Source: a virus (Duplodnaviria > Caudoviricetes). Taken from it: a stretch of DNA of 26,775 nt. This document shows positions 3,801 through 25,673 of this stretch, in pieces. Both the position numbers and the translations under genes were made by a program. The notes beneath the pieces were generated by a model. That model was not told the origin of the DNA and did no database searches. It saw nothing but the letters and a program-made list of their open reading frames with translations. How positions within the stretch are numbered: the first letter of the stretch is position 1; every line of letters starts with the position of its first letter. Where the stretch lies: positions 1 to 26,775 of the IMG/VR virus record IMGVR_UViG_3300012953_000184, one strand, 5' to 3'.

Positions 3801-3835
3801 TTTACCACTTCGCTTTTTTGCTGTTTATAGTAGTA
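3801..3835 (+). promoter_or_regulatory. Putative late promoter, copy 1: TTTACCACTT-N11-TGTTTATAGTAGTA
   Basis: Both boxes and the 11-nt spacing recur exactly at 24570-24604; lies just upstream of the scaffold-capsid-tail tube operon. Confidence 0.7.
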
Positions 3836-13783: not shown

Positions 13784-13960
13784 ATGCAGGCATTTAATGA
13801 TCTTATCATATCTGTTAAAAGAGACTTCAATGACACGATTAAGGTTGGTGAAGTAGACTTATATCTTGATAAGAAAATGTCTTCTTTGCGTGCAGCAAAC
13901 AGGATAGGAAAGGTGGTTAAGCTGCCGCTTATGCAAAAAACTTCAAAAAACAAGCGATAG
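13784..13960 (+). pseudogene. Short ORF (58 aa), possibly a truncated gene remnant next to attP
   Basis: MQAFNDLIISVKRDFNDTIKVGEVDLYLDKK...NRIGKVVKLPL, then a K-rich end; resemblance to phage GroES-like N-termini is from recollection and unverified. Confidence 0.35.
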
Positions 13961-14243: not shown

Positions 14244-15431
14244 ATGTATTTTTATTTAAAAAACAAAAACACTAACTCAAAGACCTTAATACTTTTAAGA
14301 TATTACGTTGCCAAAGATAGAAAATTGTTTCAGTTATCTACTAAACTTTCTATTAAACCTTCTGACTGGTCTTTTGACAATAGAATGCCTACTCCCAAGC
14401 GTGGACTTGCAAGTGTAGAGAGCAGGCAGCTAACTAATAAGCTAAACCGTATTAATGAGAAGCTACAGGCGGTACTGCTGCATTATGGTAAAGACGTTAG
14501 AGTAGAAAACCTAAAGGAAGCATTTGCACCAAAAAAAAATAAAGAAAACGTTGAGCCTTTGTTTTTAGAATTTATAGAGGAAAAAAAAATACAAGGCACG
14601 CTCAACAAGTCAAGCATACAAAAGTACAATGTGGTGTTTGATAAATACAAAAGCTTTTGTGCAAAACAACACACCAAGTACAAGATAATGCAGCTCAACG
14701 ATGATTTCTACATTGCTTTTTTAAGTTATATGCGGCACGATCACGGCTTAAACGACAACACGCTTTCTCGTTATTTTGTCTGTTTTAAAACATTTGTACT
14801 GTGGTGTCAGCGCAAAGGCATAGAGATTAATACAGACTATAAAAAAGTAACTGTAAAAGAGTATGAAGCAGATGGTATTGCGCTTACTGTTGAAGATGTT
14901 AAGACGCTAGAACAGGCAGAACTCACTGGCGCAGAGGAAAAGGCTAGGGATTTGTTTTTAATTGGTGTGTATTCGGGTCAAAGGTTTTCAGACTACAGCG
15001 TGTTTGACAAGGCAGACGTGCAAGGTAAGTTTATAATAAAACGAGCAGAAAAGACAGAGAAGCACAGTTATATACCGCTTCACAATAAGCTAAAAGATTT
15101 GCTTGACAAGTACGACTGGAGGCTGCCAAAGATAAGCTCGCAGAAGTTTAATGTAAGGATCCAAGCGGTATGTAAGAAATTAGGCTTTGATGAGCAGATA
15201 AAGAAAACTACCTATAAAGGCAAGGATAAGACTGTAGAGATTATACCAAAGTGGCGCATGGTAGCATCGCACACAGCCAGAAGAACCTATACCACACTGG
15301 CGTGTGAGGCAGGAATAGCAGACCATTTCATCATGGCTGTTACTGGCATAAAAGACCCCAAGACACTACAGAAATACAAAAAGCTAAATAAAGAAATGCT
15401 TTTTAAGTCTTCTGCTTCTTTTTGGGTTTAG
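14244..15431 (+). CDS. int: Tyrosine recombinase / phage integrase
   Basis: N-terminal arm-binding-like region, RDLFLIGVYSGQRFSD, AEKT, SHTARRT, C-terminal QKY; adjacent to attP. Confidence 0.93.
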   Translation: MYFYLKNKNTNSKTLILLRYYVAKDRKLFQLSTKLSIKPSDWSFDNRMPTPKRGLASVESRQLTNKLNRINEKLQAVLLHYGKDVRVENLKEAFAPKKNKENVEPLFLEFIEEKKIQGTLNKSSIQKYNVVFDKYKSFCAKQHTKYKIMQLNDDFYIAFLSYMRHDHGLNDNTLSRYFVCFKTFVLWCQRKGIEINTDYKKVTVKEYEADGIALTVEDVKTLEQAELTGAEEKARDLFLIGVYSGQRFSDYSVFDKADVQGKFIIKRAEKTEKHSYIPLHNKLKDLLDKYDWRLPKISSQKFNVRIQAVCKKLGFDEQIKKTTYKGKDKTVEIIPKWRMVASHTARRTYTTLACEAGIADHFIMAVTGIKDPKTLQKYKKLNKEMLFKSSASFWV

Positions 15432-15839: not shown

Positions 15840-16406
15840 TTAGTCCTTACAAATACCTACATTTAGTTCTGCATTATTAATTTTATCTATCTCTAATAGT
15901 ATGTTCATTAGGTATTCGGAAAACCGCTCATCCATATTGTCTTTTATAATCATGGAGCTGTAGTTTCTTTTGTTGGTGTATTTTACTGCCTTTATTTTGC
16001 TGCTCTTAAAGAGGCTCTCCTTACCGCCAATGTCAAAATAATTTTCATCTTCGCAGTTAAATTTTTTCCAATTAACTAGCTGTGTTTTCTCGCCATTCTC
16101 AAAAATAATATCTAAGGTGCTTTCTTCTTCCACACAGCCATCTATGCCTGAAACTTTTAAATAAAAGGAGCTTGGTTTAATTTTTCCTTCTTCTTCTTTT
16201 AAAAACAGCATGCCAAGCATGCCTTGTGTACTCATATCGCCTCCGTCTTTAAATCCTATCATACCATCAATAGTACTTACAGATACTTTGTCGGTAAACT
16301 CGTCAACCGTTTTACAGATTAGTTTAGAGGTAATGGCTTGTTGGTCATTTTGGGCGTTGCCACTAACGCCTACAAATAGTATTAGTAATAATAATAAGTA
16401 GTTCAT
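15840..16406 (-). CDS. Exported protein with signal peptide (lysogen-expressed accessory gene)
   Basis: MNYLLLLLILFVGVSGNA-QND signal peptide (start 16406; in-frame ATG also at 16436); four Cys; downstream of the repressor on the same strand. Confidence 0.7.
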   Translation of the reverse strand: MNYLLLLLILFVGVSGNAQNDQQAITSKLICKTVDEFTDKVSVSTIDGMIGFKDGGDMSTQGMLGMLFLKEEEGKIKPSSFYLKVSGIDGCVEEESTLDIIFENGEKTQLVNWKKFNCEDENYFDIGGKESLFKSSKIKAVKYTNKRNYSSMIIKDNMDERFSEYLMNILLEIDKINNAELNVGICKD

Positions 16407-16455
16407 TTTTGTTGATTTGGGGGTTAAATATTTCATTTTTGTTCATTTAGGGGTT
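16402..16455 (-). repeat. Tandem 24-bp leader repeat, period 30 (AACCCC[T/C]AAAT[G/C]AACAAAAATGAA)
   Basis: 16402-16425 vs 16432-16455 match at 22/24; each copy ends in an in-frame ATG. Confidence 0.75.
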
Positions 16456-16456
16456 T

Positions 16457-16978
16457 TTATTTTTCATTTAAGTACTTGTTTAGCTCATTTACTAAATAGT
16501 TTATTTTATCTGTTATTTCTTTAGCATTTTTATGCATAATTAAGACCGTTTCTTTGAGCTTCAGCATTTCTGTTTCGTTTGAGTTTGCCAAATCTTCTAT
16601 TGAGTCAGTCTTAACCATAAACATATCTGCAATCTCGTCTAGTTTATCTAATATAGGAAGGGCAGCATGGTTGTCTCGTTGATCTATTTTACCTGGCAAG
16701 TCAAATTCTATAAATTCTATGACTTGCTGCGCTGTTACTGTTCTATCTTCTTCTTTTGATTGTTTGTCTTCTTCTTTTCCATATAGTAGCCACTTCTCAG
16801 AAATGTCTGGAAATGCGGTTATAATTCTTTCTACCGTCTTTCCACTAGGTTTTCTGTTTTCTTTTATAAGCAGATGTATTGTTGTTGGGGAATTAAGTCC
16901 AATAATTCTACAAAAATCTGCTACTGATAGCTCTTTTTCTTTTAATATCTTTTTTATTCTACCAGAGTAGCCCTTCAT
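16457..16978 (-). CDS. CI-like XRE-family HTH repressor
   Basis: RIKKILKEKELSVADFCRIIGLNSPTTIH...RKPS...FPDISEKWLLYGK; divergent from the early operon; no obvious S24 peptidase domain. Confidence 0.85.
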   Translation of the reverse strand: MKGYSGRIKKILKEKELSVADFCRIIGLNSPTTIHLLIKENRKPSGKTVERIITAFPDISEKWLLYGKEEDKQSKEEDRTVTAQQVIEFIEFDLPGKIDQRDNHAALPILDKLDEIADMFMVKTDSIEDLANSNETEMLKLKETVLIMHKNAKEITDKINYLVNELNKYLNEK

Positions 16979-17542: not shown

Positions 17543-17932
17543 ATGAAAATAAATAGAGAAGATTTAGAAGGAATCCTTATAGACAATTTCACAGATAAAG
17601 ATGGACACCTTGATTTATCAGATTTAGACTTTAGAAAAGTTAAAGGCAAAGTAATTCTCACAAGAATGAAAGCAAAGGTAATTAATAACTCATTCCAAGA
17701 AGCAGAGTGGATTGATAACACACACCAAAAAGCAGAGTGGATTGATAACACATACCAAAAAGCAAAGAAGATTTGGAACTATGGTCAAAAAGCAGAGTGG
17801 ATTGAAAACAATAATCAAAAAGCTAAGGTTATTCATAACTATTACCAAGAAGCAGAGTGGATTTTTAACTTATACCAAGAAGCAGAGACGATTAGTAACG
17901 CAAACCAAATAGCAAAGAAGATTATAAAATAA
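17543..17932 (+). CDS. 10-aa repeat protein, paralogue 1
   Basis: TDKDGHLDLSDLDF N-domain plus about 8-9 QxAxxIxNxx repeats. Confidence 0.8.
   Translation: MKINREDLEGILIDNFTDKDGHLDLSDLDFRKVKGKVILTRMKAKVINNSFQEAEWIDNTHQKAEWIDNTYQKAKKIWNYGQKAEWIENNNQKAKVIHNYYQEAEWIFNLYQEAETISNANQIAKKIIK
17666..17929 (+). repeat. 30-bp coding tandem repeat (CAA nnn GCA nnn nnn ATT nnn AAC nnn nnn)
   Basis: Strict 30-bp period visible in the sequence. Confidence 0.9.
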
Positions 17933-19920: not shown

Positions 19921-20359
19921 AAACTGCCTAGCAAAAGGAGCTAAAATAAGACAGGTGTCTGATTGCTTTGAAAGCAAGGCTCCTAGCATAGGCAAAATGC
20001 AGCGCACACAGGGCAATGTGTTTACAAACGCATACGTGATGGCTTGGCTTGTTTACTTGAATGAAGTGCTTGGTCTTAACAAACCAATGAGCGAAGAACA
20101 AATAAGGCTGTGCGCTCAGATGATTTTAGACGATTACTACGCACTCAACATAGCAGATTTCACGCTTCTGTTTAAGCGCATCATCAAAGGCGATTATGGC
20201 GAGTTTTACGAGCGGTTGAGCATAGATAAAATACAAAAGTTCTTCAGCAATTATTTTGAGGAGCGATGCAATGAAGCACAAACGCAAACCCAACGCACCC
20301 ATAACGATCTAAAGTCTGATGACACATTTGCCTTTAGCAATAACCCTAGAAGAAGATAA
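19838..20359 (+). CDS. Putative helicase loader / replication accessory protein
   Basis: Directly follows the initiator; QMILDDYYALNIADFTLLFKRIIKGDYGEFYERL; start uncertain (19838 or 19862). Confidence 0.5.
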   Translation: MEARKIVKMEVNTLKSSSKKLLAIYSPKNCLAKGAKIRQVSDCFESKAPSIGKMQRTQGNVFTNAYVMAWLVYLNEVLGLNKPMSEEQIRLCAQMILDDYYALNIADFTLLFKRIIKGDYGEFYERLSIDKIQKFFSNYFEERCNEAQTQTQRTHNDLKSDDTFAFSNNPRRR

Positions 20360-20381
20360 CTAACCCCAAACAGTAAATAAC

Positions 20382-20702
20382 ATGAAAAAAATAAACAAGA
20401 TAAGAGACTACTTAATTAAGCATAGAACAGATGAATATGGAAACCTTGATTTATCTGACTTAGATTTTAAAGACTTTAACGGTGATATACTGTTGAATGG
20501 AATGGTAGCTAAAAAAAAGATTTCTAATCTCGGGCAAAATGCAAGTATAATTTCTAACACATACCAAGAAGCAGAGACGATTTGGAACTCATGGCAAGAC
20601 GCAGATATAATTTGCAACCATAATCAAACTGCGGATAGTATTGATAACAATAATCAAGAATTAGAACATCGGCATGATGACTGGCGTCAGATGATGCAGT
20701 AA
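20382..20702 (+). CDS. 10-aa repeat protein, paralogue 2
   Basis: TDEYGNLDLSDLDF N-domain plus about 5 repeats (20505-20660) and a unique short tail. Confidence 0.8.
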   Translation: MKKINKIRDYLIKHRTDEYGNLDLSDLDFKDFNGDILLNGMVAKKKISNLGQNASIISNTYQEAETIWNSWQDADIICNHNQTADSIDNNNQELEHRHDDWRQMMQ

Positions 20703-20723
20703 TATTAAAATACAAGTTAAACC

Positions 20724-21260
20724 ATGAAAAAAATAAACGAAATAAGAGACTACTTAATTAAGCACAGGACAGACGAAGATGGAGACCTAGATTTATCAGA
20801 TTTAGACTTTAGAGAGTTTGATGGTGATATAGTGTTAGATAAAATGAAATCCAAAAAAACGATTTCTAATTCATTCCAAGACGCAGATATAATTTGGAAC
20901 AATAATCAAAAAGCAAATAAGATTTGGAACGCATGGCAAGAAGCAAAGGAGATTAGGAACACATGGCAAGAAGCAGAGAAGATTAGGAACGCAAATCAAA
21001 AAGCAAATAAGATTTCTAACGCATGGCAAGAAGCAAAGGAGATTAGGAACACAAAGAGCAGATTAAAAGCATTTCTAAACCGACTATTGACACGCTTAGC
21101 AACAATCTTTTTTTTACTAACAATTCGCGCTTTCGTAGTCATTTGCATTGTAATAGGCTTACCAATATGGTTTGTTACAGGGAAAGCATATTTGACTGAT
21201 TGGAGTATTAGGTTAATGGACAAACTCCTAGATACATATTTCAAGGCTCAAAATAACTAA
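20724..21260 (+). CDS. 10-aa repeat protein, paralogue 3, fused to a C-terminal membrane segment
   Basis: Same N-domain plus about 7 repeats (20847-21053), then LATIFFLLTIRAFVVICIVIGLPIWFV. Confidence 0.8.
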   Translation: MKKINEIRDYLIKHRTDEDGDLDLSDLDFREFDGDIVLDKMKSKKTISNSFQDADIIWNNNQKANKIWNAWQEAKEIRNTWQEAEKIRNANQKANKISNAWQEAKEIRNTKSRLKAFLNRLLTRLATIFFLLTIRAFVVICIVIGLPIWFVTGKAYLTDWSIRLMDKLLDTYFKAQNN

Positions 21261-21277
21261 CCCCAAATAATAATAAC

Positions 21278-21577
21278 ATGAAAGGAATAAACGAAATAAG
21301 AGACTACTTAGTTAAGCATAGAACAGACGAAGATGGAGACCTAGATTTATCAGATTTAGACTTTAGAGAGTTTGATGGTGATATAGTGTTAGATAAAATG
21401 AAATCCAAACAGAGTATTATTAACTCACGCCAACAAGCAAAGAAGATTTGGAACAATGGTCAAGAAGCAGATAAGATTTCTAACTCATTCCAAGAAGCAA
21501 AGGAGATTAGGAACACATACCAAAAAGCAAAGAAGATTTGGAACTATGGTCAAAAAGCAGAGGAGATTGTAAAATAA
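21278..21577 (+). CDS. 10-aa repeat protein, paralogue 4
   Basis: 5' region nearly identical to paralogue 3; about 6 repeats (21401-21574). Confidence 0.8.
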   Translation: MKGINEIRDYLVKHRTDEDGDLDLSDLDFREFDGDIVLDKMKSKQSIINSRQQAKKIWNNGQEADKISNSFQEAKEIRNTYQKAKKIWNYGQKAEEIVK

Positions 21578-21928
21578 ATGATTAAGAGAGTCTACCAGAA
21601 GCGCAACAAGTATAAAGCTGTTAAGCAAATGTTTAATGGTAGGCTATACCACAGCAAAAAGGAGGCAGCCTTCGCCCAAGAGTTGCACCTACGTAAGCTT
21701 GCAGGGGAAATTACTGATATCATTCCACAGTACCCCCTGCGACTTTACGTTAATGAAAAAAAAATATGCAACTACTTCATAGACTTCAAAGTAGTATATC
21801 CTGATAACAGCATAGAGCTAATTGAAGTCAAAGGATTTGAAACAGATATATGGAGACTAAAATGGAAATTAACAGAAGCACTATTAGATGAAATAGAACC
21901 TAACGCAAAACTCGTACTTGTAAAATGA
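21578..21928 (+). CDS. DUF1064-like PD-(D/E)xK endonuclease
   Basis: RNKYKA...YHSKKEA...YFIDF...LIEVKGF...WRLKWK. Confidence 0.8.
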   Translation: MIKRVYQKRNKYKAVKQMFNGRLYHSKKEAAFAQELHLRKLAGEITDIIPQYPLRLYVNEKKICNYFIDFKVVYPDNSIELIEVKGFETDIWRLKWKLTEALLDEIEPNAKLVLVK

Positions 21929-22338
21929 ATGAACAACAAATAAAACTTTTTCAAAGTAAAAAGACAGATAATTGGCAAACCCCTAATTGCTTATATAACG
22001 AACTAAATGAAGAGTTTAATTTTGACTTTGATCCTTGTCCCTTAAATTCTACTTTCAATGGGCTAGATTGTAATTGGGGCAGACGTAATTTTATCAATCC
22101 TCCTTATAGTAACGTCAAGGGATTTTTACAAAAAGCCTATGAAGAGTTACAAAATGGCAACGCTGAAGTTTGCGTTTTTTTAACTTTCGCTAATACCGAC
22201 ACAAAATGGTTTCACGACTATTGTTATAATAAAGCAGAAATAAGGTTTATAAAAGGACGCTTAAAATTTTTAGATGATACAGGTAAAGTAAAAAACAGTG
22301 CTATGAGACCAAGTATAATTTTAATATTCAAAAATTAA
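21925..22338 (+). CDS. Phage DNA N6-adenine methyltransferase
   Basis: DNWQTP, FDFDPCP, FINPPYS, TDTKWFH, IRFIKGRLKF. Confidence 0.88.
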   Translation: MNEQQIKLFQSKKTDNWQTPNCLYNELNEEFNFDFDPCPLNSTFNGLDCNWGRRNFINPPYSNVKGFLQKAYEELQNGNAEVCVFLTFANTDTKWFHDYCYNKAEIRFIKGRLKFLDDTGKVKNSAMRPSIILIFKN

Positions 22339-22349
22339 AAACTAATTAA

Positions 22350-22871
22350 ATGAATATACTCGAAAACCTTAACCAAAACCATAAAAGCTTTGTCTTGTAC
22401 GTAAAGAAAAACGCAAGAACAGAACAACAAAAAAAATACCCAGAGGATGTAGTCCAAGAAGCATACTGCCGCATTATAGAAATACAATCGCAAGGGCATG
22501 AACTGAAATTTGAAAGCTACTCAATGCTTGAAAGGTATTTCTTTAAAACAATTAAAAACATCATGATTAACCAGACACAAAAAAAAACAATACAAGAGCT
22601 GCCAATTAAAGGCGAAATCACTTTTCAAGACGTAAAGGATATTGAAGTTATAGAGCACTCAGAGCTTGTAAAAAAGATAGATCAGGTTGTAGAAACTTTT
22701 TACTGGTATGACAAAATGATGTTTAACCTCTATCGTTATAAAATTCCTTCTATTAGAAAAATATCTAGTGAGACCAAAATAAGCAGACCAAGTGTTACAG
22801 GAACCATCAAAAGCTGTAAGTATAAAATACAAAAGGAACTGGCAACAGAATATTATAAAATAGTGAATTAG
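22350..22871 (+). CDS. ECF sigma factor-like protein (candidate late transcription activator)
   Basis: EDVVQEAY and YFFKTIKN (region 2-like); WYDKMMFNLY...SIRKISSETKISRPSV (region 4 HTH). Confidence 0.75.
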   Translation: MNILENLNQNHKSFVLYVKKNARTEQQKKYPEDVVQEAYCRIIEIQSQGHELKFESYSMLERYFFKTIKNIMINQTQKKTIQELPIKGEITFQDVKDIEVIEHSELVKKIDQVVETFYWYDKMMFNLYRYKIPSIRKISSETKISRPSVTGTIKSCKYKIQKELATEYYKIVN

Positions 22872-22877
22872 TAAAAC

Positions 22878-22923
22878 AGTATTAACCCCAAAAAACGTGA
22901 ACATGAGCAAGACAGAAAAAATG
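22878..22923 (+). repeat. Cassette boundary repeat A
   Basis: 22880-22923 is 41/44 identical to 23251-23294 (TATTAACCCCAAAAAAC..GAACATGA.CAAGACAGAAAAAATG). Confidence 0.9.
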
Positions 22924-23235
22924 AAGAATATACAAATGAAAGAAAATGGCAGGATCGTTTATTGCGATGATAACGGCAAGCCATTGTTTTTATACAATGT
23001 TGAGGTACGTTTTTCTTTGTGGTGGAGTAGATTAATTAAAACTGCTAAAGCTAAAATCTGGTGGTATAAAGGAAGTGTTAAAAACTTTGCTTGGTTTCAA
23101 TTAAGGGCTTGGAACGCATTACGAGGCAAAGAAATGATAATGGATAGCAGGGAGGTTATAACCAAAGGTGGCTACATATTCAAACAACTTGAAATAAGTA
23201 AATCTCCTGTAAGTAAAACGGAGTGTATTGAGTAA
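22903..23235 (+). CDS. Hypothetical protein (cassette 1), Trp-rich
   Basis: ORF bounded by repeats A and B; start 22903, 22921 or 22936. Confidence 0.65.
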   Translation: MSKTEKMKNIQMKENGRIVYCDDNGKPLFLYNVEVRFSLWWSRLIKTAKAKIWWYKGSVKNFAWFQLRAWNALRGKEMIMDSREVITKGGYIFKQLEISKSPVSKTECIE

Positions 23236-23294
23236 TGCACCCTAACAAAATATTAACCCCAAAAAACAAGAACATGAACAAGACAGAAAAAATG
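23232..23294 (+). repeat. Cassette boundary repeat B
   Basis: GTAATGCACCCTAAC-AAAATATTAACCCCAAAAAACAAGAACATG... Confidence 0.9.
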
Positions 23295-23633
23295 GAATTA
23301 AAACACAACATTAGTAAATGGAAAGACGAGAATGGCAATGATTTTATCGCCTTAAGCAAAAGTGTTATACCCAAGCGAAAAGGTCGTTTATTAGTAAATA
23401 GAGAATTGATATTACAAGCTGATGTAGATACACTAAAAGTAATTTTCTCAAACTTTTTTCCTTTAGATGTCAATAGACACCATATTGTAAGCTATTGGGA
23501 TAGCATTGAATATTATGGAATAAGCGAACACTTTGAAGAAGTAGAAGAGTTTTGTGCAGCTCCTACTTATGAAATGTGGCTCAAACGTGATAAAAACGGT
23601 AAAGTAAAGTTTGATAAAATGGTAAAGCTATAA
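23274..23633 (+). CDS. Hypothetical protein (cassette 2)
   Basis: ORF bounded by repeats B and C; IEYYGISEHFEEVEE...PTYE; start 23274 or 23292 rather than 23235. Confidence 0.7.
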   Translation: MNKTEKMELKHNISKWKDENGNDFIALSKSVIPKRKGRLLVNRELILQADVDTLKVIFSNFFPLDVNRHHIVSYWDSIEYYGISEHFEEVEEFCAAPTYEMWLKRDKNGKVKFDKMVKL

Positions 23634-23634
23634 G

Positions 23635-23677
23635 TATTACACCCAACAAAGTATCACCCCCAATAAATGAGAACATG
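23635..23677 (+). repeat. Cassette boundary repeat C
   Basis: TATTACACCCAAC-AAAGTATCACCCCCAA (23635-23663) is 27/29 identical to 24531-24559; continues to GAACATG. Confidence 0.9.
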
Positions 23678-23685
23678 AAGATATT

Positions 23686-23994
23686 ATGGCAAAGTACAGA
23701 AAGAAACCAGTAGTAATTGAAGCGATACAACTTAAAGAAACAAATATTAGTGAAGTGCTAAGTTTTATGGGGCAAAAAGTAAGGTTGCAACCTTTTCAGG
23801 AACAAATGAGATTAGAGCAGTATAAAGATAGTGTTGTTGAAAACGGTATGAATATACATACGCTAGAAGATGGAAGTGACGCAAGGGCAAAGCACGTAGC
23901 GAGTATAGGTGATTGGATTATAAAAGGAATAAAGGGTGAATTTTACCCTTGCAAACCCGATATATTTACCGCTACATACGAAGAAGTAAAGTAG
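23686..23994 (+). CDS. Conserved phage protein, PGDYG-like family (cassette 3)
   Basis: KYRKKPVVIEAIQ...IHTLE...ASIGDWIIKGIKGEFYPCKPDIF..TYE. Confidence 0.8.
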   Translation: MAKYRKKPVVIEAIQLKETNISEVLSFMGQKVRLQPFQEQMRLEQYKDSVVENGMNIHTLEDGSDARAKHVASIGDWIIKGIKGEFYPCKPDIFTATYEEVK

Positions 23995-24037
23995 TATTAT
24001 GCACATCAAAGTATTAACCCCAAAAAACAAGAATATG
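23995..24037 (+). repeat. Cassette boundary repeat D
   Basis: TATTATGCACATC-AAAGTATTAACCCCAAAAAACAAGAATATG; 24007-24037 is 29/31 identical to 23246-23276. Confidence 0.88.
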
Positions 24038-24274
24038 GCTTATAGAATATATGAAATAATAAAACCAGAACGTGACGACTACGACTTGAAAACCACTGAG
24101 TCAATAACATTGAAAGAGGTTGATTGTTATGGTTTGAATTGGTCTTACGTTAGCGAAGTATCTGCTAAAATAGATATTGAACAAAACAAAAAAAACTTAA
24201 AACACAAAGACCTAGTTATATTAGAGGTGATTAATATTACACCTAACGCATTGTATAAGGCAAGTAGCATTTAA
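24035..24274 (+). CDS. Hypothetical protein (cassette 4); 3' end reads into the attC-like site
   Basis: MAYRIYEII...; ATG at the end of repeat D is more likely than 23999. Confidence 0.65.
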   Translation: MAYRIYEIIKPERDDYDLKTTESITLKEVDCYGLNWSYVSEVSAKIDIEQNKKNLKHKDLVILEVINITPNALYKASSI

Positions 24275-24365
24275 AGACCAAAAGAAAAAGTAAATTGATT
24301 TAATAACAGCAAATAGTACAAAAATAAGCCTAACAGCTATTTGCTATATACATTGTTAGGTGTAG
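24235..24365. repeat. attC-like imperfect palindrome (site E)
   Basis: ACCTAAC (RYYYAAC, 24241-47) ... GTTAGGT (GTTRRRY, 24355-61), 121 bp; inner arms TGTATAAGGCAAGTAGC (24252-68) and GCTATTTGCTATATACA (24336-52) are 14/17 complementary; AT-rich centre. Confidence 0.75.
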
Positions 24366-24373
24366 TTAAAATT

Positions 24374-24523
24374 ATGTTTGGAATAGGAAATTATTATGGA
24401 GGATTAAAAATAAAAGAAGAAGATGGTAAATACTTTTGGGGGATAGAAAATTATGATGGAACTGATTTTAAAGAAATACCTAAATACCTTTTTGATTCAT
24501 TGGTTGAATTTAGGGATGAGTAA
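24374..24523 (+). CDS. Small hypothetical protein (49 aa, cassette 5)
   Basis: MFGIGNYYGGLKIKEEDGKYFWGIENYDG...; starts 12 nt after GTTAGGT and stops just before repeat F. Confidence 0.7.
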   Translation: MFGIGNYYGGLKIKEEDGKYFWGIENYDGTDFKEIPKYLFDSLVEFRDE

Positions 24524-24530
24524 TAATTTT

Positions 24531-24559
24531 TATTACATCTAACAAAGTATCACCCCCAA
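24531..24559 (+). repeat. Cassette boundary repeat F
   Basis: TATTACATCTAAC-AAAGTATCACCCCCAA. Confidence 0.9.
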
Positions 24560-24572
24560 CAAAGGGGGGTTT
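24552..24572 (+). terminator. Short GC hairpin closing the early/cassette region (possible weak terminator)
   Basis: ACCCCC-AACAAAG-GGGGGT followed by TT; the T-tract is short. Confidence 0.35.
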
Positions 24573-24604
24573 ACCACTTGTAAATTTTCTTGTTTATAGT
24601 AGTA
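24570..24604 (+). promoter_or_regulatory. Putative late promoter, copy 2: TTTACCACTT-N11-TGTTTATAGTAGTA
   Basis: Boxes and spacing identical to 3801-3835; upstream of the terminase operon. Confidence 0.7.
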
Positions 24605-24981
24605 TGAAACAGAAAGGTTTAGGAGATACGGTAGACTGGATTACTACACACACAGGAATTAAACAAGCAGTCAAATATTTCTTTGGAGACAACTGTGGCT
24701 GCCAAGAGCGTAAAGAATGGCTAAACAAAATGCTGCCATACATGCGTGAAGAACTAACACAAAGCGAGTACTTGCTGCTGCACGATTTCTTCAAAGAAGA
24801 TCACAGTACTGTTACAGCCAAACAACAAAGCCAACTACTTAAAATATACAACAGGGTGTTTGGTAAGCGTAGAGAAATGAGCAGTTGCTCTCCATGCGTT
24901 AAAACACTTGTTGATGAGCTAAAAGAATTATACAATGAATACAGTAAAGCTATTGAGCAAAGTAATAAACGGAAGGCTTGA
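24604..24981 (+). CDS. Conserved Cys-containing phage protein
   Basis: KGLGDTV...TGIK...NCGCQERKEWLN...SSCSPCV. Confidence 0.75.
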   Translation: MKQKGLGDTVDWITTHTGIKQAVKYFFGDNCGCQERKEWLNKMLPYMREELTQSEYLLLHDFFKEDHSTVTAKQQSQLLKIYNRVFGKRREMSSCSPCVKTLVDELKELYNEYSKAIEQSNKRKA

Positions 24982-25373: not shown

Positions 25374-25673
25374 ATGGACAAACGAAAATATAATGGAGGT
25401 AAAAGAATAGGAGCAGGCAGAAAGCCAAAAGACCAAGAGAATTCATTGATAGAAGCCCTAGACAGAATAGTAGATGGCGATAAGGCTATTGAAGTTTTAA
25501 AAGAACTAATAAGCGAAGGAGACATTAGAGCATTACAACTCTACCTAAACTATCGTTATGGCAAACCAAAAGAAAGTGTAGATGTTACACAATTTGTTGA
25601 ACAACCCCTATTTTTAGATGTTCCTGAAGACTACAGCGGTACAGAAGATACAGAAGCTCAACAAGAGGATTAG
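25374..25673 (+). CDS. terS: Terminase small subunit (putative)
   Basis: MDKRKYNGGKRIGAGRKPK...YRYGKPKESVD...EQPLF; directly upstream of and overlapping TerL. Confidence 0.75.
   Translation: MDKRKYNGGKRIGAGRKPKDQENSLIEALDRIVDGDKAIEVLKELISEGDIRALQLYLNYRYGKPKESVDVTQFVEQPLFLDVPEDYSGTEDTEAQQED

Follow-up and report, generated by a model that had tools for sequence, protein, structure and literature searches.

Ends of inverted integron-type cassettes apparently joined to a translation leader in a variable block of a temperate phage

The short sites that divide a block of small genes in a temperate phage genome appear to be the 3' ends of inverted integron-type cassettes, joined at AA/C to a translation leader of the phage. 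An IntI-like recombinase from outside, provided by the host or by a co-infecting phage, is likely to have made the joints. We give a probability of about 0.55 to a history in which IntI-like capture at the AAC of the leader was followed by loss of the cassette hairpins and by short-homology shuffling at ATGA. The anatomy of the sites, the variation of their content and the crossover point of the cassette family are established; the enzymatic step is what we infer.

Results

The phage and its variable block

The window, that is, the whole 26,775-nt stretch of DNA analysed, represents most of a temperate tailed phage genome (estimated completeness, 82%), with the integrase gene at 14244, the repressor gene at 16457 and the terminase gene at 25618. 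The metagenome run that matches it best is marine and may be its source. Its host is probably flavobacterial, since relatives of site E (see below) occur in phages of Tenacibaculum, Cellulophaga and Polaribacter (8 records). A GroES-like short ORF (phrog_13932; 13784-13960) lies directly before the integrase gene, and a lone, secreted-looking gene (15840-16436, minus strand) with a TAACCCC leader ahead of it is found between integrase and repressor. The cassette block is flanked by a sigma-factor-like gene on the left and by a conserved gene, at 24604, on the right. Its features, all on the plus strand, are as follows:

22350..22871, plus: sigma-factor-like phage gene (phrog_1740, E 7.6e-5), left flank of the block
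22872..22906, plus: site A, a leader (right half as far as GAACATGA) that lacks both a cassette end and an in-register AAC
22903..23235, plus: gene A-B; its reading frame still contains the 3' arm of the unit's own hairpin (GTT box, 22999)
23233..23277, plus: hybrid site B, cassette end, then leader to ATGA; AAC at 23244-46; aligned site 23233-23260
23274..23633, plus: gene B-C; inner GTT box gone through a one-codon gap
23635..23678, plus: hybrid site C, cassette end, then leader; AAC at 23645-47; aligned site 23635-23661
23686..23994, plus: gene C-D, a widespread small phage protein (phrog_419)
23995..24037, plus: hybrid site D, cassette end, then leader; ATC at 24005-07 (GAT on the minus strand, fitting GWT); aligned site 23995-24021
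24035..24274, plus: gene D-E, reading through the 5' arm of E
24235..24367, plus: site E, attC-like hairpin, intact and inverted in polarity; AAC at 24245-47, GTT at 24357-59; left end 24235-24247
24247..24542, plus: whole inverted cassette E-F (296 bp), made of hairpin, 48-aa gene (24377-24523) and own end
24531..24559, plus: hybrid site F, array-terminal; AAC at 24541-43; aligned site 24531-24557
24560..24608, plus: likely late-promoter and leader element (promoter role putative), a duplicate fused to gene 24604 at its ATG

A complete relative, L117, is 71-89% alike to the window in shared blocks. Homology of L117 and L118 with the sigma-factor-like gene runs to 22863, and in L117 this gene adjoins the 24604 gene; the whole 1.7-kb block (22864-24595) is therefore absent there, which provides the empty allele called for by the original prediction. 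L118 has a different gene at the position of the block, DNA methyltransferase-like judging by sequence. Searches brought up no relatives for the sigma gene or gene D-E in IMG/VR, for genes A-B and D-E among cultured phages, or for gene B-C among 401 Flavobacteriaceae genomes, and no family match was found for gene D-E.

The element at 24560-24608 has an 80% copy at 3801-3835 and an 84% copy behind the terminase gene in L117 (L117:7304-7352). These three copies, of the form ACCACTT...GTTTATAGTAGT, are conserved ahead of late genes, and the phage sigma-like protein probably acts on them. The one that follows site F is a duplicate, not present at this place in L117; a loose contig end falls at 24608 in one set of matching contigs (X1).

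The window also differs from L117 elsewhere. A DNA methyltransferase gene (21925-22338) is missing in L117 and is skipped (425 bp, 8 shared letters) in the X2, X3 and X9 contigs described below. At the place of the window's repeat-gene array, L117 carries an extra gene (L117:3686-4137) between two direct copies of a repeat, about 18 bp long, in which the stop of the upstream gene is contained.

Anatomy of the hybrid sites

The left halves of B, C, D and F are common to the attC-like site E, and all four sites switch to a second motif at AAC (ATC in D), as originally predicted. A fifth right half, that of site A, lies at 22876 and had been missed. The triplet ends 11-20 nt 3' of a stop codon. 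In the first 14 columns after it, B, C, D and F agree four out of four at 11, and E has their majority letter at 5; the left halves of the four sites differ from each other at positions -4 to -9. The motif AAAGTATYAMCCCC has six matches at two mismatches or fewer, as opposed to 0.43 expected, a count reached in none of 100 shuffles; five of them are A, B, C, D and F, and the sixth overlaps the left half of C. The left-half motif has nine matches (3.1 expected), of which only four are sites (C, E, F and the other arm of E). The minus-strand reading GTTRRRY given originally for C, E and F was confirmed; it does not extend to B (GTTAGGG) or D (GATGTGC).

At site E, RYYYAAC and GTTRRRY boxes pair in a hairpin with an L stem and an asymmetric spacer, as in attC. 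The longer spacer is on the 5' arm; the extra base, which is not a G, is on the 3' arm. Folding is moderate only (z, -1.9 and -2.3). An Rfam search gave no match at the gathering score and three weak ones (E 0.31-3.5). Site E is the one whole hairpin detected in 22301-24700, so the block does not qualify as a CALIN (at least two attC, no intI).

AAC as the exchange point in cultured phages

Comparison of closely related isolates of cultured Polaribacter phages identified AAC as the point at which this family exchanges cassettes. Indels of 781, 307 and 472 bp (Danklef_1/3, Freya_10/9 and Freya_6/5, respectively) are bounded at AAC on the gene strand, G/TT on the other, in all three clean Danklef/Freya indel pairs; Freya_10 and Freya_9 have only the letters AAC in common. 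Several ends of the blocks that differ between P12002L and P12002S likewise coincide with AAC or lie a few bases from it. AAC does not account for all breaks: in Danklef/Freya_10 and P12002L/S some block ends lie inside genes or arms. Danklef_1 and Danklef_5 show no array difference, and JQ and Danklef have a common piece that extends from a 5' arm to a GTT. In a control pair, Flavobacterium phages FCV-1 and V175, indels lack the AAC-to-AAC pattern, one joint adjoining an AAC.

For the three indel units and for an intact cassette in record L136, the inner GTT box agrees with the 3' end of its own unit at 10, 9, 9 and 10 of 10 positions, and with the upstream end at 6, 6, 7 and 8. The short spacer is on the 5' arm in 16 of 17 host chromosomal sites, as against 3 of 12 phage detections (seven of the others are reversed and two equal; several of the 12 are likely false). 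The indels, the own-end boxes and the spacer polarity together therefore define a cassette of the form AA/C-hairpin-gene-end-AA/C, the mirror of the classical one. The original placement of the crossover at G/TT of the minus strand thus proved correct. In the available text of PMC9892861, IntI1 recombined P12002L_attC2 with attI1 through the bottom strand only, at G/TT; the attC2 oligonucleotide given there is the array-terminal site at the P12002L/S breakpoint, present in two copies in P12002L. The polarity and indel data led us to abandon the idea that the seam formed on the top strand, at the R'' of cassettes in the normal orientation.

Whole and decayed cassettes in the window

The window units depart from the classical cassette layout (ORF 5' of attC, top strand) in having the hairpin 5' of the ORF and the exchange on the gene strand. 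Three units have an inner box complementary to their own end, as expected of a gene cassette moving between fixed crossover points: E-F (9 of 10), A-B (7 of 10) and the L136 homolog of B-C (10 of 10), which is the intact cassette mentioned above. Most homologs of A-B read NVRVRF at the place of the box, which, as deduced from the protein, would fit a box complementary to the left half of B. At the position of the codon gap in B-C, FIADVSSS is found in five of five homologs and FIA-LSKS in the window. A-B and B-C are shown to be homologs or remnants of whole cassettes in which the leader stands in place of the 5' arm. In C, 3 of 10 left-half positions do not match the inner box found in the L136 homolog. 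This speaks against precise capture and means that one left half, if not more, arrived by another route. No convincing inner box is left in C-D or D-E, and neither can be classed as a cassette.

Content variation among relatives

Contigs of sets X1-X3 and X9 were matched to the window at 85% likeness, joints being taken as match ends among the matches listed. The X2, X3 and X9 contigs, from three studies, have other gene arrangements between the sites. In X3, record 18 carries a different insert between sites A and B; record 19 shows, in this order, gene B-C, a C-like end and a B-type right half; record 20 matches from the AAC of C (23645), with 1385 other letters upstream; and record 21 matches from 24538, three letters before the AAC of F, with other DNA upstream. 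Records 19, 20 and 21 thus change at or beside AAC, and the X3 contig ends would fit a repeat running from AAC to ATGA at B. In X2 (record 13) the E-F unit lies in another context, behind a different gene. X9 record 28 has lost 772 bp, 22898 being joined to 23671 with 8 shared letters within GAACATGA. From the X3 and X9 joints, relatives connect their units at two points, AAC and ATGA, which lie 30 nt apart.

In a second variable array (20350-21600), joints of relatives fall at TAACCC leaders (20361, 21258), with no cassette ends. Four paralogous window genes (17543-17932, 20382-20702, 20724-21260 and 21278-21577) have a common N-terminus followed by 30-nt (10-aa) tandem repeats and no match in L117.

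The right half is a translation leader

Conservation of the right half extends a further 30 nt or so, as far as GAACATGA, where the next gene begins; this extension, too, had been missed. Judging from its sequence, it is the 5' translation leader (TAACCCC...AACATG) of this phage lineage, because TAACCC/TCACCCC hexamers precede ATG-ORFs (8 of 14 in the window, versus backgrounds of 15% and 5%; 0 of 3 in L117/L118) and similar leaders border the 20350-21600 array. The leader also precedes genes that have no cassette end. A-rich, SD-free starts with A at -3 fit what the available part of PMC6847099 describes for Bacteroidetes. An empty leader with AAC in register was not seen; A lacks AAC.

The right half had been proposed to be a recurrent attI-like phage site. 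Scans of viral, metagenome and genome sequences, from which near relatives may have been withheld, lend this no support: it did not recur at AAC in any of them. On its own it was found in IMG/VR at 116 loci, mostly by chance, in 86 distinct contexts; AAC stands ahead of it in two of the 86, neither with a cassette-like left half, and six are leader-like. The hybrid pattern was found at 15 metagenome loci (two of them the window's own contig, the other 13 without a cassette-type left half) and at 22 loci in GTDB genomes, none related to the window by tblastx. The left half gave 45 loci, the real ones being L157 (identical to L136) and perhaps L169; the leader pattern had no match in IMG/VR.

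In a host attI matrix, whose pattern matched 25 of 31 loci (the wrong GTT being taken at one, L223), B, C and F rank at only 0.72-0.88 among 1068 GTT, D being left out; identity with host attI was rejected on this low rank. The core of the attI-like site of phage IntI-like genes, TAAC-ACCCNN-ATAAC, is out of register with the window seam. Instead of a single attI at the array end there are five right halves, none host-attI-like or with the phage attI core in register.

IntI-like enzymes in hosts and phages

An IntI-like gene (TIGR02249) was found neither in the window, 82% complete, nor in the complete relative L117, and the window has no intI beside the array, the mark of an integron. The window integrase, of the PF17293 + PF13102 type, is an arm-binding phage integrase and has no relationship to the Freya enzyme. 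In 31 of 41 Flavobacteriaceae genomes (L211-L241) there is an IntI-like gene that scores under the TIGR02249 cut-off. An attI-like TAT-N5-6-GTT usually follows it, and cassettes lie 3' of the stop codon. Freya, Ingeline, L272 and L276-278 make up a compact family of IntI-like genes carried by phages, with a conserved attI-like TAAC/ACCCNNATAAC about 50 nt ahead of ATG. Its members include:

L265:4076-4962: IntI-like gene of Freya_10
L271:3440-4292: IntI-like gene of Ingeline_1

These proteins carry PF13495 + PF00589 and are 28% identical to a host IntI-like protein. Freya arrays adjoin the IntI-like genes, and isolates differ by exact cassette indels at the attI-like site; the Freya/Ingeline locus looks like a complete phage-borne integron-like platform. 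In the available text of Bartlau et al. (PMC8776804) the Freya integrase is taken as a sign of lysogeny, and the words "integron" and "cassette" do not appear. In Danklef_1 the IntI-like gene (L207:12973-13492) is shortened, its match to the Freya protein covering residues 96-271; even so, one exact cassette distinguishes Danklef isolates.

Discussion

A model for the hybrid sites

We envisage three steps. The 5' edge of the leader would first have served as a secondary, attG-like target of the bottom-strand exchange of a cassette. Fusion of a leader to the start codon of the gene would then have deleted the 5' arm of the cassette, giving leader-ORF-end units that are expressed and no longer fold an attC. 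Relatives would subsequently swap or delete units through 30-35 bp of leader identity, and such identity would account for the several copies in one array. Short-homology recombination at ATGA is likely to have both removed the hairpins and multiplied the units. Thus, the original view of the sites as products of recombination between an attC and an attI-like site is supported in that the seam exchanges cassettes at AAC, and finds no support as to the partner, which looks like a leader and not a recurrent attI. Against an enzymatic step is the fact that the window joints have 4-10 bp in common with any cassette end and that the lineage accepts 8-bp joints elsewhere; the sequence therefore does not require the action of an enzyme.

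If true, the model shows how mobile cassettes of integron type become accessory genes of a phage that are fixed, expressed and swappable, and the stages of this change would stand side by side: E-F whole, A-B and B-C half decayed, C-D and D-E fully stripped. Testable substrates are E, F and C, and candidate enzymes the Flavobacteriaceae IntI-like proteins below the TIGR02249 cut-off and the Freya/Ingeline family.

Alternative explanations

The lineage could also have arisen with no site-specific step, from one founding hybrid into which genes entered by short-homology exchange, both within the common left half with its AAC and at ATGA. The break would seem sharp since AAC is the last base common to donor and recipient. 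This is a serious but, in our judgement, somewhat unlikely explanation. It would account for a left half of C that departs from the own end of the homolog in L136, for the 8-bp ATGA joint in X9 and the leader joints of the second array, and for the lack of an IntI-like gene in the window and L117; a NinB/Orf recombination mediator gene at 24935 would suit it too. However, the left halves of B and F are cassette-specific up to AAC, the four left halves show no convergence at -4 to -9, and related phages exchange with just AAC in common.

Alternatively, the right halves might each still work as a delta-attI-like dock, derived perhaps by decay from the attI and leader that accompany the phage-borne IntI-like genes; leader-ORF-end units would then still be excised and reinserted at individual sites. 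Excerpts of PMC12901181 describe delta-attI cassettes as functional substrates of IntI1. Although the right half has no identity to host attI, it bears a partial likeness to the Freya integrase leader and the phage attI core: the right half of D matches 16 of 19 letters of that leader, outscoring all but one of 149 control leaders, and the core, at two edits or fewer, has 10 matches in the window (six of them leaders) versus 0-4 in 15 shuffles, a post hoc count. In X3 record 19, gene B-C lies between copies of the same right half, which a circle would give as well. Set against this are the core being out of register with the seam, the modest host attI rank, the occurrence of the motif as a plain leader in unrelated phages and the X9 deletion at ATGA instead of AAC. 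We regard such docks as quite improbable. Rather improbable, too, is a leader of dual use, both translation start and recombinase dock, in a multi-dock array of hairpin-less cassettes. Were it true, genes would be docked at AA/C, expressed from the leader and excised as leader-to-leader units by an IntI-like enzyme from the host or a helper phage, making an integron-like system with neither attC nor resident integrase.

Finally, the 29-mer might mark no recombination. It could act as promoter or operator, or be what is left of a host-type attC with the usual orientation. The right halves of C, D and F are in the top 3-4% when compared with host R''-side arms (15 sites, two of 17 host sites having been left out as likely false), but B scores at background. 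In some phages (L026, L045) the motif follows what we take to be a Bacteroidetes -7 box. A constant right half next to left halves that vary by cassette, and a native continuation in L136 that is a long-spacer arm, speak against such a role. Relatives change their content at the sites, which largely refutes this explanation; we consider it highly improbable.

Relationship to known systems

Phage accessory genes are known to shuffle at repeated intergenic boundaries, such as the lambdoid linkers and the promoter/stem-loop cassettes of T4. The block resembles these in its repeated leader, variable small genes and short-homology joints, and differs in that each unit has, on one side, the end of an integron-type cassette.

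According to the accessible part of bioRxiv 2022.09.11.507474, attG is a non-att secondary target with consensus core GWT and a CRGM motif at +6 to +9. The window sites are similar in being a non-att target with this core (GTT in B, C and F, GAT in D), a weak, three-base feature; the attG hotspots described there are unrelated single loci, unlike the repeated leader.

In the truncated-attC/delta-attI cassettes of class 1 and 2 integrons, as presented in excerpts of PMC12901181 (citing Partridge 2009), the cassette end is kept, the attC body is replaced by a short recurrent non-attC sequence and several can occur in one array, all as in the window. The window cassettes differ in being inverted, with the crossover box itself as the retained box, in having as replacing sequence a translation leader of at most putative attI origin, and in being carried by a phage. 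Multiple sites in one array do not call for the distinct mechanism suggested: the terminal site of P12002L is present in duplicate, there are precedents in delta-attI cassettes (PMC12901181), and relatives form joints at ATGA as well.

A further parallel is the phage CALIN of P12002L (Qi et al. 2023, PMC9892861), in its available text likewise a flavobacterial phage array with no intI, whose IntI1-active "attC2" is array-terminal like F and crosses at the same G/TT. P12002L arrays, unlike the window, keep mostly whole hairpins. That text mentions "divergent directions" and does not describe a general inverted polarity or leader-fused hybrids. A full-text literature search, with sparse coverage of subscription papers, brought up no paper on the inverted-cassette system apart from Qi et al. 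2023. This wider system matters more than its leader-fused variant, and the block is best read as such a variant, in which inverted cassettes of flavobacterial phages have decayed and become fused to leaders.
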